A stretch of DNA of 60,000 nt from Candidatus Aenigmatarchaeota archaeon. GTDB taxonomy: Archaea > Aenigmatarchaeota > Aenigmatarchaeia > CG10238-14 > SCSR01. The stretch is taken from positions 83,405-143,404 of the forward strand of contig JACRAE010000005.1 of assembly GCA_016213525.1 (NCBI GenBank). Reading direction: 5' to 3'. A program made the position numbers and the translations under genes. This document shows, one piece after another, positions 1,727 to 40,151 of this stretch. Under the pieces are notes generated by a model. That model was not told the DNA's origin, did not search any database, and saw only the letters and a list, made by a program, of their open reading frames with translations. Position 1 is the stretch's first letter. Every line of letters starts with the position of its first letter.

Positions 1727-1745
1727 CTCATCTCTCCTTGTGGTG

Positions 1746-1818
1746 TGCGCCAGCCGGGATTTGAACCCGGGCTCTAAGCTTGGGAAGCTCATGTCCTACC
1801 AGGCTAGACTACTGGCGC
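1746..1818 (-). tRNA. tRNA-Gly(CCC)
   Basis: GCGCCAG acceptor stem, anticodon arm TGAGC-TTCCCAA-GCTTA, T-loop GGTTCAAATCC; CCA not encoded at the canonical position. Confidence 0.95.
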
Positions 1819-1859: not shown

Positions 1860-2013
1860 CGCTGAGGAGGGGATTTGAACCCCCATAGGCTTGCGCCTGC
1901 CGGTTGCCTAGCTCCCCGCTCAATTCACCTCCGACTCATCACGGGTCAGAGTCAAGCCATGTTATCATCGGGAGATTCAAGACCGGTGCACTACCGGGTT
2001 ATGCGACCTCAGC
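1860..2013 (-). tRNA. tRNA-Ser(TGA) with 70-nt intron at position 37/38 (intron 1906-1975)
   Basis: GCTGAGG/CCTCAGC acceptor stem, G73, anticodon stem CCGGT/ACCGG, CT-TGA-A, long variable arm AGGC-GCAA-GCCT, T-loop TTCAAAT; relaxed bulge-helix-bulge at the splice junctions. Confidence 0.93.
1906..1975 (-). ncRNA. Putative intron-encoded box C/D methylation guide sRNA
   Basis: On - strand: CTCCC stem, C box ATGATAA (1968-1962), 12-nt guide, D' CTGA (1949-1946), CCC, C' GTGATGA (1942-1936), 12-nt guide, D TTGA (1923-1920), GGGAG stem. Confidence 0.82.
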
Positions 2014-2056
2014 AATCCTTGGTTGTGGCTGCAACGATATAAAAAGAGCAGTTATC

Positions 2057-36576: not shown

Positions 36577-37251
36577 TCATTTCTTAGTCTTCTTCATGCC
36601 GCGCACGACTGAGACGAGCTGCGCCGGCGTCCTCACGATGTAGTCGGTGCCGCGCCTCCTGAGGGCCGCCTCGTTGTTGTACCCCCAGGTGACCGATATG
36701 ATGGAGACCTTTCTCCTCCTCGCCGCGTTGATGTCCCTCACCTCGTCGCCGACGTACACCGCCTCGTCCGGCCTCATCTTTATCTCCCTCAGGGCGCGCT
36801 TCAGCATCTTGTGCTTTCCAAAAATGGAGCCGCCGGCGTAGACGAAGTCGAATATGTCCAGGTCGTTGTTCCTCAGGAAAATTCTGACGTTGTCCTTCGA
36901 GTTCAGGGTGAGTATGCCGATCTTGAACCCCATCTTCTTTATCTTGAGCAGGGCGCCCCTCACGCCGACCGTCGCCTTCAGGCGACCCATGTCCTCCCCC
37001 ATCATCTTCCTGGCCTTGCTGACGAGGAACGGCAGCACGAATATCGATATCTTCATCCGCCTGACCACCCTCTCCAGGTCCTCCCCCCTCAAAATCTTAA
37101 TCTCTTTTGCGGTAATCTTCCTGTAACCGTTCTCTTCCGCGAGCCTGTTGAATATCGCGACCGTCTCGTCCATGGTGTCGGCTATCGTGCCGTCGAAGTC
37201 GAATATCACGACCCTCTTCTCAGAGCTTCTCTTCCTGAAAAATCCCAGCAA
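36577..37251 (-). CDS. HAD-family hydrolase (phosphoglycolate phosphatase-like)
   Basis: 'IFDFDGTIADT', 'YVGDEVRDI.AA', 'VTWGYN'. Confidence 0.88.
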   Translation of the reverse strand: MLGFFRKRSSEKRVVIFDFDGTIADTMDETVAIFNRLAEENGYRKITAKEIKILRGEDLERVVRRMKISIFVLPFLVSKARKMMGEDMGRLKATVGVRGALLKIKKMGFKIGILTLNSKDNVRIFLRNNDLDIFDFVYAGGSIFGKHKMLKRALREIKMRPDEAVYVGDEVRDINAARRRKVSIISVTWGYNNEAALRRRGTDYIVRTPAQLVSVVRGMKKTKK

Positions 37252-37255
37252 GAAA

Positions 37256-38440
37256 TTACCTCGTTACCTCGGAGCTCTTGACCAGGTTGTAGAGGCGCCC
37301 CGCCTTCTCGCTCTTCTCGAAGTGCCTCCTGACCGGCATTATGATCTTGTCCAGGCTCTGGGCAGTCGACGCCTTCAGGTCCATCGGGTGCAGCTTGCCC
37401 GCGACGAAGTCCCTCTCCATCTCCCCGTAGGACCTGTAGACGACATCCCCGCCGAACTTCTTGTCCCTCTCGACCGTGACCCTCTTCAGGGCCTTGAAGA
37501 CTATGTACCTGTTGTACTCGAGTATCGGGTTGTTCTCCGCCACGCCGACCGGGCAGAACGCCTTCGCCAGCTTCCTCTTTATCTCGTCCGCGGTGTCGTG
37601 CACGAAGATGGCGGTGTCGGGCTTGCTCTTGCTCATCTTGGACGTTATCTGGAAGTTGAACTTCGAGTTATCGTCGAATTGGTTCACCACTCCCCCCACG
37701 CCGACCCTGTACGTCCCGGGGGGCACCCCCTGCACGTCCTTCTTCAAAATCTCTATGTGAGCCTTGCCCTCCTCGACCTTGTGCTCCGCCGGAATTATAG
37801 CGTCCAGCCCCCTGAGCAGGTGGTGGCTGACTATGACGGGCTTCCTCCACCCCATTTTTTCTGCAACTTCCCTCGCCAGTATCCCGCACCTCCTCTGGTC
37901 GAGGCCGAGCTGGGCTATGTCGACGTCCAGGTGGAACGCGTCGGCCGCCTGCATCATCGGGTAGAATATCTGCGCCGTGTCCTTCATGTCGCCCTGCTTC
38001 CTGCCCATTATCGTGACTGCTCGCTCGGCCCTGTTCAGCGTGGTGCTCTTCGCGACGAGTATGACCTTCTTCCAGTACTCCTCGTCTGAAACGAGGTCGC
38101 TCGCCCAGATGATTTCCACCTTCTTCACTCCGGCCGCCTTCCACACCTCGACGAAGTACTCGCCGGTCTTCTGTATCGCCTCGAGGTCTCCGCCCATCTT
38201 GTTGTTTATCCACGCGTGCCAGTCCGCTATCAAAATCTTGAATTTTATCCCGGCCCTCTGGAGGTCCGCCAGGTTTATGGCGCGCAGTATCCCGGAGCCC
38301 AGGTGCGCGAAGCCGCTCGGCTCGAACCCGTCATATGCCGTGGGACGGGCCTTCTCCTGCAGCAGCTTCAGGAGCTCGCCCTCCGTGACGATCTCCTCCG
38401 CCATCCCCCTGACCAGTTCCAATCTCTTCTCGGGCGTCAT
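37256..38440 (-). CDS. tyrS: Tyrosine--tRNA ligase
   Basis: 'AYDGFEPSG.AHLG', 'ADWHA', 'YPMMQAAD', 'GLDQRR', KMSKS, 'LHPMDLK'. Confidence 0.96.
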   Translation of the reverse strand: MTPEKRLELVRGMAEEIVTEGELLKLLQEKARPTAYDGFEPSGFAHLGSGILRAINLADLQRAGIKFKILIADWHAWINNKMGGDLEAIQKTGEYFVEVWKAAGVKKVEIIWASDLVSDEEYWKKVILVAKSTTLNRAERAVTIMGRKQGDMKDTAQIFYPMMQAADAFHLDVDIAQLGLDQRRCGILAREVAEKMGWRKPVIVSHHLLRGLDAIIPAEHKVEEGKAHIEILKKDVQGVPPGTYRVGVGGVVNQFDDNSKFNFQITSKMSKSKPDTAIFVHDTADEIKRKLAKAFCPVGVAENNPILEYNRYIVFKALKRVTVERDKKFGGDVVYRSYGEMERDFVAGKLHPMDLKASTAQSLDKIIMPVRRHFEKSEKAGRLYNLVKSSEVTR

Positions 38441-38572
38441 TGTCTTCCGTTAATTATTCGGGGCTTCAGGTTAATTATCGTTTCTGAGGAGTTTTTCGGC
38501 GCGTTTTTTCGCCGGACGGGGTCACGGATACCTTTTAATATCTCGTTTTTCGATTTAATTTAGAGATTGAAC

Positions 38573-38845
38573 ATGCCAGTGAAGAAGAACGCAAAGTCCA
38601 AGGCCTCCGGCGGGAGGAAGGTCAGGGTCAACAAGGACCTGAAGAAGCTCGAGAAGGACATCGTCAAGAAGCAGGGCAAGATGACCGAGGCCCAGTTCGA
38701 GGCGGAGGAGAGGAAGATCCTCGAGGACAGGAGGAACAACGTCAAGGGCATGGGCATAGAGAAGGAAGAGGAAGCCGGCGAGGAGCCGTACCCTGAGATA
38801 GCAGAGGCCCTGAAGGACTCGGACGAGTCGGAAGAGGAAGAGTAA
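38573..38845 (+). CDS. Small charge-segregated hypothetical protein
   Basis: Basic N-terminus, acidic C-terminus; genome-typical codon use; upstream TTTTAATA. Confidence 0.6.
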   Translation: MPVKKNAKSKASGGRKVRVNKDLKKLEKDIVKKQGKMTEAQFEAEERKILEDRRNNVKGMGIEKEEEAGEEPYPEIAEALKDSDESEEEE

Positions 38846-38870
38846 GATTTTTTTTGTGGTGTTTTGAAAA

Positions 38871-40151
38871 ATGGTACAGCTTACGTTTTTAGGGGCGATG
38901 TGCGAGGTCGGCGCGAGCGGGATGGTCCTTGAGAACCAGAGCTCCCGCGTGCTGATGGACTACGGCGCGTCGACCGAGGTCACGCCAGCCAGGCCCCCGC
39001 TCCCGTGCGGCAAGGTCAGCTCCGTGATTCTGTCCCACGCCCACGTCGACCACTGCGGCAGCCTGCCGATGGTCACGAAGGAAAGCAACGCGCCGATATT
39101 CGCCGCGCCGTGCACGAGGGAGATAACGGAGATGCTCCTCTACGACTCGCTGAAGATCAACATGCAGGCGGCGGGCACCCTCGAGGGCGCCAGCCTGCCG
39201 TTCGTCAAGGACGACGTCAAGAGGACGGTCAGCAACTTCCGCGACATCCCCTACAGGAGGCCGTTCTCGCTTCCGGGCGGTTCGAGGGCCACGCTGTTCG
39301 ACGCGGGCCACATACCGGGCAGCGCCATGACGCTGGTCGAGATGGACGGCAAGAATTTCTTATACGCCGGCAACTACAACGGCATCGACACCAGGCTGCT
39401 GAAGAAGTGCGACCTCGACCTGCCGAGGGTCGACTACCTCATCACGGAGTCGACGTACAGCGACCGCGACCACCCCGACAGGAGGAGCCAGGAGAAGGAG
39501 CTCGTCGAGATGGTGGAGCAGACCGTTGGGAACGGCGGCATAGCGCTGATACCGTCCTTCGCGGTGGGGAGGGCGCAGGAACTGCTCTTGATATTGGAGC
39601 AGGAGGGCATCGACTATCCGGTCTTCATGGACGGCATGGCGAAGAAGGCCTCGACCATAATCAACCGCCACAAGGAGCAGCTGAGGGACCCGAAGGAGCT
39701 CGACGACACGCTCAGGAAGGTCAAGTACGTCACGACGCAGCAGCACAGGGCCAAGGTCGTGAAGGAGCCTTGCGCGATCATAACCACGTCCGGCATGCTC
39801 AGCGGGGGACCTACGAACTCGTACATGAAGATGCTCCACGACGACGACAACTCATCTCTCATTTTGACGGGCTGGCAGGCGCACGACAGCCCAGGCAAGC
39901 TGCTGCTGGAGACGGGCCGCTACATCAACGAGGAGGAGAAGGTGGACGTCGAGGTCAGGATGCGCGTGCGCAGGCTCGACTTCTCGGCCCACATAGGCAG
40001 GACCGACATGTGGAACTTCATCAAGCAGCTGAACCCGAAGACGACGTTCTGCGTGCACGGCGACCACACCGAGGAGTTCGCGCGCGAGCTCAACGAGAAG
40101 GGCTTCAACGCCGTGGCCCCGATAGCCAACGACAGGATATTCAAGTTCTGA
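38871..40151 (+). CDS. MBL-fold beta-CASP ribonuclease (aCPSF-like, no KH domain)
   Basis: 'FLGA..EVG.S', 'SHAHVDH.G', 'AGHIPGS', 'ESTY', 'P.FAVGRAQE', 'FSAH', 'VHG'. Confidence 0.93.
   Translation: MVQLTFLGAMCEVGASGMVLENQSSRVLMDYGASTEVTPARPPLPCGKVSSVILSHAHVDHCGSLPMVTKESNAPIFAAPCTREITEMLLYDSLKINMQAAGTLEGASLPFVKDDVKRTVSNFRDIPYRRPFSLPGGSRATLFDAGHIPGSAMTLVEMDGKNFLYAGNYNGIDTRLLKKCDLDLPRVDYLITESTYSDRDHPDRRSQEKELVEMVEQTVGNGGIALIPSFAVGRAQELLLILEQEGIDYPVFMDGMAKKASTIINRHKEQLRDPKELDDTLRKVKYVTTQQHRAKVVKEPCAIITTSGMLSGGPTNSYMKMLHDDDNSSLILTGWQAHDSPGKLLLETGRYINEEEKVDVEVRMRVRRLDFSAHIGRTDMWNFIKQLNPKTTFCVHGDHTEEFARELNEKGFNAVAPIANDRIFKF

Follow-up and report, generated by a model that had tools for sequence, protein, structure and literature searches.

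Does the intron of a transfer RNA (tRNA) gene in an ultra-small archaeon hold a guide RNA, and on which RNA would such a guide act? This question is raised by a stretch of 60,000 nucleotides (nt) from Candidatus Aenigmatarchaeota archaeon (GenBank assembly GCA_016213525.1, contig JACRAE010000005.1, positions 83,405 to 143,404 of the forward strand), hereafter called the window, in which the gene for tRNA-Ser(UGA) is interrupted by a 70-nt intron at positions 1906..1975 of the minus strand. The initial annotation had proposed that this intron is a complete box C/D small RNA (sRNA). Our analysis bears out this proposal, since the element is conserved in relatives, has a counterpart in Nanoarchaeum equitans, and possesses a D' guide that covaries with its target in 16S ribosomal RNA (rRNA). 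As far as sequence comparison can tell, the intron very likely works as an archaeal box C/D sRNA, one of the family that sR13 of N. equitans represents, and would act as a conserved guide in trans.

Layout and conservation of the intron-encoded RNA

The string on which the initial annotation was based is the reverse complement of window positions 1906-1975, which places the feature on the minus strand. Read in this direction, the intron contains box C (AUGAUAA, 1962..1968), the 12-nt D' guide (CAUGGCUUGACU, 1950..1961), box D' (CUGA, 1946..1949), a 3-nt linker CCC between D' and C' that belongs to a K-loop-type internal motif (1943..1945), box C' (GUGAUGA, 1936..1942), the 12-nt D guide (GUCGGAGGUGAA, 1924..1935) and box D (UUGA, 1920..1923). 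The boxes were identified by direct reading and by alignment, the linker by direct reading. Both spacers are exactly 12 nt long, and the succession of boxes and guides is precisely the one that had been described.

Consensus boxes of this class are RUGAUGA for C and CUGA for D, and they fold into a kink-turn (K-turn) with tandem G-A pairs. The intron has A for G at position 6 of box C and U for C at position 1 of box D. Since these two positions face each other in the K-turn, the departures are compensatory and replace a G-C pair by A-U; both AUGAUAA and UUGA retain the GA dinucleotides, and the terminal C/D boxes are predicted to be able to form a K-turn. A census of this position in 57 copies, all parsed with a fixed 12-nt spacer, revealed A:U (box C position 6 : box D position 1) in 42 copies, C:G in one (L033), U:A in one (L081), and a non-pair or wobble in five (U-U, A-G, A-A and two G-U). 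The A-A case is the N. equitans copy, in which the fixed parse misplaces the D box and which has G:C when properly read. Eight copies of family f4 show A:C at the same position, which turns into G:C with a spacer of 13 nt. Counting f4 at 13 nt and N. equitans, four Watson-Crick types (A-U, C-G, U-A and G-C) occur at a single K-turn position, and in f4 the next K-turn pair covaries as well (G-C in seven copies, A-U in one).

Across 22 aligned copies the D' and C' boxes are nearly invariant. The linker between them varies in length and sequence from copy to copy, and the terminal stems change in sequence with their complementarity kept. Conserved boxes with covarying stems had been expected in the tRNA-Ser(UGA) introns of relatives, and this is indeed what they contain: the boxes are kept in orthologous introns of several orders, and the stems differ yet stay complementary.

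A BLAST search with the pre-tRNA against 41 related genomes recovered the sRNA core at 79-90% identity in many of them, often without the tRNA exons. The 22 aligned copies were used to build a sequence-only model, R1, which matches the intron itself at 1970..1919 (59.3 bits, E 1.6e-17). Matches to R1 are present in 77 of the 118 genomes of the order and in 28 of its 34 high-quality ones, with a single match in 74 of the 77 positive genomes. Among 151 genomes sampled across the class, 54 are matched by R1, and outside the order the matches are weaker and often limited to box C, the D' guide, D' and C'. When 185,579 species genomes were scanned for an exact pattern, 64 loci came up; those with a name are mostly Candidatus Aenigmatarchaeota, and Nanoarchaeum equitans Kin4-M is also among them. 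These labels agree with the initial annotation, which had assumed a DPANN genome. Five loci of family f21 and similar ones (L084, L086, L087, L141 and L152) have a tRNA-Ser intron that retains the D' guide for the A1408 region, combined with a different second guide and AUGAAGA as C' box.

Predicted target sites in 16S rRNA

The window lies on contig C3 of an assembly of 662 kb, which comprises 7 contigs and is 89% complete. The 16S gene of this genome is uninterrupted and located at C3:70383-71930, about 11.5 kb outside the window. The D' guide can form nine contiguous Watson-Crick pairs with nt 1432-1440 of this 16S rRNA, within CGUCAAGCCAAU, and its N+5 base (U at 1954) stands opposite A1435 (C3:70496), the equivalent of A1408 in the decoding site. 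For the D guide we found eight contiguous Watson-Crick pairs with nt 1540-1547 (UCACCUCC, the anti-Shine-Dalgarno sequence), a target that ends one base from the Rfam-defined 3' end of 16S rRNA; its N+5 base (G at 1928) faces C1543 (C3:70388), the equivalent of C1535. The numbers 1408 and 1535 follow the E. coli numbering as used in PMC5389701. Both sites belong to the 3' minor domain of 16S rRNA and are the probable targets, with methylation predicted there. Action on the host, as known from tRNA-Trp introns, was rejected: the guides are not complementary to the tRNA-Ser exons, and no duplex of at least 7 base pairs (bp) covering N+5 was found between the guides and the tRNA-Ser of this genome; the initial annotation had already noted that the guides do not match its anticodon arm.

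Support for the pairing with 16S rRNA comes from the covariation of the D' guide in relatives and from published data on sR13. The covariation set consists of 37 loci in which the sRNA and its 16S target are on the same stretch. In 33 of them, GUCAAGCC is opposite GGCUUGAC. The other four (L022, L027, L067 and L080) have GUCAAACC opposite GGUUUGAC or, in L027, opposite GGAUUUGAC, and the matching C-to-U change is found in the partner strand of helix 44 too; four genera and two families are represented among them. A changed target is accompanied by a compensating change of the guide in four out of four cases, and guide and target are consistent in all 37. The D' duplex comprises 8-11 Watson-Crick pairs in 36 of the 37 loci and always covers N+5; an extra A in L027 breaks the duplex after six pairs. 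The register of the D' guide is identical in all 37 copies and in the N. equitans copy, and the core GGAGGUG of the D guide is invariant among copies.

No tRNA lies in the 8-kb locus of the N. equitans copy (L101, 6916-6965), which is a gene standing by itself behind an A/T-rich upstream region. This copy had been left out of the building of R1 and is matched by it with 35.5 bits (E 4.2e-10), the guide cores being shared. Judging from the description of its targets, this copy is most likely the published sR13. In the parts of Seistrup et al. (NAR 2017, PMC5389701) that deal with this RNA, its 5' part is reported to pair with 16S 1405-1415 and to direct Am1408, and its 3' part to pair with 16S 1531-1540 and to direct Am1534. 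The same parts report that Am1408, Am1409 and Am1534 were demonstrated in N. equitans with matrix-assisted laser desorption/ionization mass spectrometry (MALDI-MS) and RiboMeth-seq, that both sR13 sites are stoichiometrically methylated, and that the authors propose sR13 as a substitute for the RsmA/Dim1 checkpoint, which is absent from N. equitans (PMC5389701).

The two RNAs resemble each other in being double-guide C/D sRNAs with a D' guide that selects A1408 and a D guide on the anti-Shine-Dalgarno 3' end. In addition, N. equitans is without RsmA, and our organism apparently likewise. They differ in that the RNA is free-standing in N. equitans and a tRNA intron here, in that the C/D box pair is of the G-C type there and of the A-U type here, and in the N+5 position of the D guide, which is A1534 in N. 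equitans and predicted to be C1535 in our genome. The D register lies one base beyond that of N. equitans both in this genome and in the aenigmarchaeal copies with a parsed D box, with the same 16S stretch paired.

Host genes, splice motifs and protein partners

The tRNA-Ser(UGA) gene, intron included, spans 1860..2013 on the minus strand and is of class II with a long variable arm. Three lines of evidence agree on it. The Rfam tRNA model RF00005 matches 2013..1860 with 40.6 bits (gathering score 29) and a 72-nt insert in the anticodon loop. ARAGORN, once introns are allowed, reports tRNA-Ser(tga) with a 70-nt intron at C3 c[85263,85417]. By direct reading, we find the anticodon stem CCGGU/ACCGG, the loop CUUGAA, the long variable arm and an intron at the canonical position 37/38. 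The host named initially is hence confirmed by the intron mode of ARAGORN, by Rfam and by the class II arm. This mode is required, as the default mode of ARAGORN called three tRNAs in the window and missed this gene. According to the same three sources, the 5' exon (tRNA positions 1-37, ending in the anticodon loop CUUGAA) lies at 1976..2013 and the 3' exon (position 38 to the acceptor end) at 1860..1905; the bulge-helix-bulge intron between them is delimited by direct reading, ARAGORN and the R1 match. A second ARAGORN call of tRNA-Ser(tga), on contig C4, was rejected: it is a 75-nt class I tRNA with a shifted intron call and not a serine tRNA, so that, apart from the window gene, no class II UGA tRNA was found in the assembly.

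The outer helix of the splice motif consists of CUCCC (1970..1974) and GGGAG (1912..1916) in five contiguous pairs and also closes the sRNA, as originally suggested. At the 3' end of the intron (1906..1911), CUAG (1911..1908) pairs with tRNA positions 32-35 (CUUG) to form the 4-bp central helix, with three of the four pairs present in this gene and in that of a congener (L010). The bulges are 3 nt each, AAU on the 5' side and GCA (G1907, C1906 and A38 at 1905) on the 3' side. With two 3-nt bulges, a 4-bp helix and the 37/38 junction, the intron fits the archaeal bulge-helix-bulge geometry. In 27 tRNA-Ser(UGA) introns with correctly placed boundaries, the central helix has 4/4 pairs in 13, 3/4 in 12 and 2/4 in two.

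Among all fetched loci we counted 84 distinct anchors, 38 of which are located within the 3' end of a 16S rRNA gene. Another 34 are in intron-bearing tRNAs according to ARAGORN; 25 of these are called Ser(tga), and the calls for the other nine are Thr, Ile, Leu or Ser(aga). On visual inspection, the latter have a CUUGAR anticodon loop and tRNA-Ser-like exon halves, and they were counted as mis-parsed tRNA-Ser(UGA). For ten anchors the host is a tRNA-Ser(UGA)-like gene that appears to have a second intron within its T-loop; these hosts were classed by eye and called by no program, being missed by ARAGORN and the Rfam tRNA model alike. The T-loop intron follows GGUUCAAA in each of them (L082, L096, L100, L103, L110, L112, L116, L135, L145 and L149). 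The remaining anchors are the free-standing N. equitans gene and a chance match in coding sequence (L140, minus strand). All 82 aenigmarchaeal copies are intron-borne, 38 in 16S and 44 in tRNA-Ser(UGA).

The 16S insertions with the sRNA, which many relatives have in roughly the last 50 nt of the gene, measure 83-157 nt. Relative to the uninterrupted 56-nt 3' terminal sequence of our own 16S gene, they are found at offsets 9 (n=9), 16 (n=9), 30 (n=19) and 37 (n=1), which corresponds to sites after nt 1500, 1507, 1521 and 1528, and excising each insertion in silico regenerates the uninterrupted sequence. All 38 insertions show the 3-4-3 geometry, with 4/4 pairs in the central helix of 34 and 3/4 in four; 26 of the 38 combine a 4/4 central helix with an outer helix of at least four contiguous pairs. 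All four 16S sites fall between the two guide targets of the sRNA. A second 16S insertion, without sRNA, is present in six loci, among them L023 (46 nt), L044 (33 nt), L130 (60 nt), and L131 and L151 (23 nt each).

The location of the sRNA appears to be either tRNA-Ser(UGA) or 16S. Four genomes that have the sRNA at another place possess a tRNA-Ser(UGA) gene with no intron (G004, G018 and G010) or with one of 12 nt (G020), and a 16S copy was observed in G004 (site 16, L080) and G020 (site 9, L068). The tRNA-Ser location is found in families f1, f2, f4, f21, f30 and f34, from several orders of the class, and the 16S location in f1, f4 (one copy), f5, f24 and f26. Since both locations are spread over families, either history needs several moves. 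A more far-reaching scenario, which we consider speculative and rather improbable, has the sRNA, never free-standing in Aenigmatarchaeota, travel as cargo in a mobile bulge-helix-bulge intron that would move repeatedly between position 37/38 of tRNA-Ser(UGA) and at least four 16S positions inside a target-bracketed segment of about 100 nt. Guide pairing would tether the excised, probably circular, intron particle to this segment and bias its re-insertion, which might proceed by a reversed cut-and-join reaction and copying back into DNA. Without RsmA, the excision of the intron from 16S together with guide release might then serve as an RNA-based checkpoint of small-subunit maturation.

The protein partners on which the initial annotation had made its reading depend, fibrillarin (256 bits) and Nop5 (204 bits), are both encoded in the genome, and L7Ae (104.5 bits) is too; all three exceed the Pfam cut-offs, and the Nop5 and fibrillarin genes are adjacent on contig C2. 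The splicing endonuclease EndA (89.5 bits) and the RtcB ligase (566.7 bits) are present as well. A search for RsmA/KsgA/Dim1 (PF00398) found none in this genome; the sole match (C2:91472-91696, 25.5 bits, profile positions 17-87) was rejected as a GCD14/TrmI-type methyltransferase. Full-length RsmA occurs in none of the 26 sampled genomes of the order (best E 7.9e-9, partial), compared to 78 of the 125 genomes from other orders of the class (E 1.3e-26 or better). In a hand tally of the class sample, R1 matches 43 of the 73 genomes without RsmA and 11 of the 78 with RsmA; because the genomes are mutually related and R1 is biased towards our own order, this tally is a lead consistent with the sR13 hypothesis and not a test of it.

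Based on the known biochemistry of these components, pre-tRNA-Ser would be transcribed and cleaved by the splicing endonuclease in both 3-nt bulges at 37/38, after which RtcB would ligate the exons and probably circularise the intron. L7Ae would bind to the C/D K-turn and the C'/D' K-loop, Nop5 and fibrillarin would then assemble, and the particle would work in trans on pre-16S rRNA. Here the D' guide would be placed on the decoding site, in the 5' strand where helix 44 has its base, with A1408 (own nt 1435) at the methylation position, and the D guide on the anti-Shine-Dalgarno 3' end with C1535 (own nt 1543) at the methylation position. As the paired sRNA would grip both flanks of helices 44 and 45, it probably also delays or orders the folding of the 3' minor domain, as has been suggested for sR13 in N. 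equitans.

Competing explanations and related systems

Several observations weigh against a functional guide RNA of the sR13 family. In our own copy, boxes C and D are off consensus and the central helix of the splice motif contains a U-U mismatch. In four copies with 58-59-nt introns (L011, L043, L046 and L047) the D box overlaps the central helix, UUGA being part of its 4 bp, so that K-turn formation and endonuclease recognition should exclude each other on one molecule; the K-turn and the splice motif may compete in these introns. R1 is without a match in 41 of the 118 genomes of the order, most of which are incomplete assemblies, and some of these genomes may truly lack the sRNA. For the D guide, covariation is precluded by the invariance of the 16S 3' end, and the register of this guide is shifted by one base relative to N. 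equitans, so that the methylated base is not conserved between the phyla, which fits a pairing role better than strict methylation. When shuffled guides were compared to 16S and 23S rRNA, 76 of 1000 D' guides reached nine pairs and 176 of 1000 D guides reached eight; shuffled guides match as well, and the complementarities in our own genome are hence not significant by themselves. At gathering thresholds, no C/D family of Rfam was found on the intron, and with E values up to 10 such families stay far below threshold (sR2 with 16.4 bits versus 42, snoPyro_CD with 15.6 versus 45). This miss says little, since the Rfam C/D families model individual sRNAs of other lineages.

Some of these points would also fit an ordinary tRNA intron with box-like words that arose by chance, or a decayed and non-functional guide remnant, namely the off-consensus boxes and the missing Rfam match. 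A relaxed double-guide pattern has one match in the 662-kb genome versus a mean of 0.35 in 20 dinucleotide shuffles, 6 of which contain at least one match, and neither the pre-tRNA (z -1.70) nor the intron (z -0.26) has an unusual folding energy, so that structure prediction contributes nothing. The architecture alone is weak evidence and statistically not decisive. What lifts the element above chance, and what we regard as decisive, is its conservation in other genomes: it is kept, nearly always as a single copy, in the matched genomes of the order and recurs in a second phylum, the guide follows the target in all four variant cases, and the off-consensus A and U are conserved as a pair, which makes a chance arrangement or a remnant the least probable explanation of all. 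The guides might also act on tRNA and not on rRNA, with the D guide on the anticodon arm of tRNA-Trp(CCA). Indeed, the D guide can form nine pairs (eight Watson-Crick and one G-U) with positions 27-35 of the tRNA-Trp of this genome, whose own intron is without C/D boxes. However, N+5 would fall on C31 in the stem, whereas the tRNA-Trp guides already known select 34 and 39, the match rests on a CCUCC stretch in common with the 16S 3' end, the GGAGGUG core is invariant though the tRNAs differ between copies, and no duplex of at least 7 bp was found with the host tRNA-Ser either. We therefore consider a tRNA target very unlikely.

A stronger competitor is a C/D-type particle selected for pairing only, which would serve as a chaperone or timer and hide the 5' strand of helix 44 and the 16S 3' end until late assembly, with methylation being a side effect or missing at one site or at both. 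Most invariant columns of the alignment fall in the guides, whose cores are better conserved than the boxes; f4 (AUGUGGA with CCGA) and f5 (UUAA) have a degenerate terminal C/D motif; in the 38 copies within 16S genes the sRNA lies in cis between its two targets; and none of the 26 sampled genomes of the order yielded RsmA, which usually acts as the late checkpoint enzyme. The one-base offset of the D guide points in the same direction, and such a role was suggested for sR13 in the relevant part of PMC5389701. On the other hand, N. equitans methylates both sites stoichiometrically according to the same source, the D' register is the same in all copies of the covariation set and in N. equitans, and the 12-nt spacing and the fibrillarin gene have been kept. 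A role confined to pairing is possible and, on balance, less probable than a guide that also directs methylation; pairing and methylation roles are not exclusive.

Pattern scans of the 662-kb genome revealed no convincing further double-guide C/D sRNA, the patterns not being exhaustive. The other matches (two half-units and two loose ones) were rejected, as they look like coding sequence and their number is that expected by chance. With its C box ending in U, the N. equitans copy would escape the scan patterns too, so that the apparent presence of only one guide RNA is a lead and not a result. The fibrillarin machinery that has been retained may have the tRNA-Ser intron as its principal or sole guide.

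Guide RNAs in introns were previously known from tRNA-Trp, where they modify their own host, and had been suspected for one tRNA-Met. In the part of the review PMC7994747 on such introns, the case described is the euryarchaeal pre-tRNA-Trp of Haloferax volcanii and Pyrococcus (sR50), in which, as here, a bulge-helix-bulge intron at 37/38 is a complete C/D guide RNA freed by tRNA splicing. Its guides methylate C34 and U39 of the host itself (PMC7994747), whereas those of our intron appear to be aimed at 16S rRNA and the host is tRNA-Ser(UGA). The elongator tRNA-Met of N. equitans, as far as the corresponding part of Randau (Genome Biol 2012, PMC3491384) describes it, has a stable 66-nt intron with C/D-like elements, which was proposed as a guide RNA; it is likewise a DPANN tRNA intron, differing in its host tRNA and its mutated C box, and no target is named for it there. 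The intron studied here has both box pairs and predicted targets assigned to them. Bulge-helix-bulge introns in the 16S genes of Thermoproteales often contain homing-endonuclease reading frames and occupy other positions. They show that archaeal 16S genes can be interrupted by such introns, as far as the part of PMC4496867 concerned with them goes. By comparison, the aenigmarchaeal 16S introns are 83-157 nt long, cluster near the 3' end at sites no more than about 30 nt apart, and contain a guide RNA aimed at the flanking exons. In eukaryotic intron-encoded small nucleolar RNAs (snoRNAs), too, the guide RNA is a by-product of splicing a translation-linked host gene. There the introns are spliceosomal and the RNA is released by exonucleolytic trimming, and we know of no such snoRNA inside rRNA itself; the aenigmarchaeal introns would be processed by endonuclease and ligase, and some are within the target rRNA.

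In the full-text literature we found no C/D sRNA in a tRNA-Ser intron or an archaeal rRNA intron, though the slash in "C/D" is unsearchable, subscription journals lay outside the search, and absence from print is not established by this. What we consider new is the host tRNA-Ser(UGA), an intron guide aimed at rRNA instead of its host and, most importantly, the alternation of one and the same guide between a tRNA-Ser intron and four intron sites inside its own 16S target region. A phylum-level lineage of ultra-small archaea keeps what is possibly its only canonical double-guide C/D RNA exclusively within introns, which would make the supply of a ribosome-maturation factor dependent on the splicing of tRNA or rRNA. 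The five insertion sites represent a natural data set on archaeal intron movement. The idea that an RNA takes the place of the RsmA/Dim1 checkpoint, put forward for sR13, could be widened from one parasite to a large group, in which it can be tested by comparison. The short introns near the 16S 3' end and the tRNA-Ser genes that default finders miss are both relevant to annotation and to primer-based surveys.

Further observations concern other genes of the genome and the surroundings of the intron. The tRNA-Trp(CCA) gene (C1:23063-23176) has, as we read it, an intron of about 41 nt without C/D boxes, which ARAGORN parses as a 22-nt intron and a false long variable arm. The 23S match (C3:58283-61785) spans 3503 nt compared to 2987 positions of the model, and the large-subunit gene may hence also hold insertions or introns. 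At window positions 37009-39019 (C3 c[120413,122423]), the intron mode of ARAGORN calls a tRNA-Thr(ggt) with a 1917-nt "intron", which could be an artefact, a split tRNA or a very long intron. Upstream of the tRNA-Ser(UGA) gene, about 24-32 nt from the mature tRNA 5' end, direct reading revealed an A/T-rich, TATA-like box (UUUUUAUAU, 2037..2045, minus strand), which we take to be a candidate archaeal promoter element; 41 nt downstream, on the same strand, ARAGORN and Rfam place a tRNA-Gly(CCC) gene (1745..1818), which is possibly co-transcribed with tRNA-Ser(UGA).

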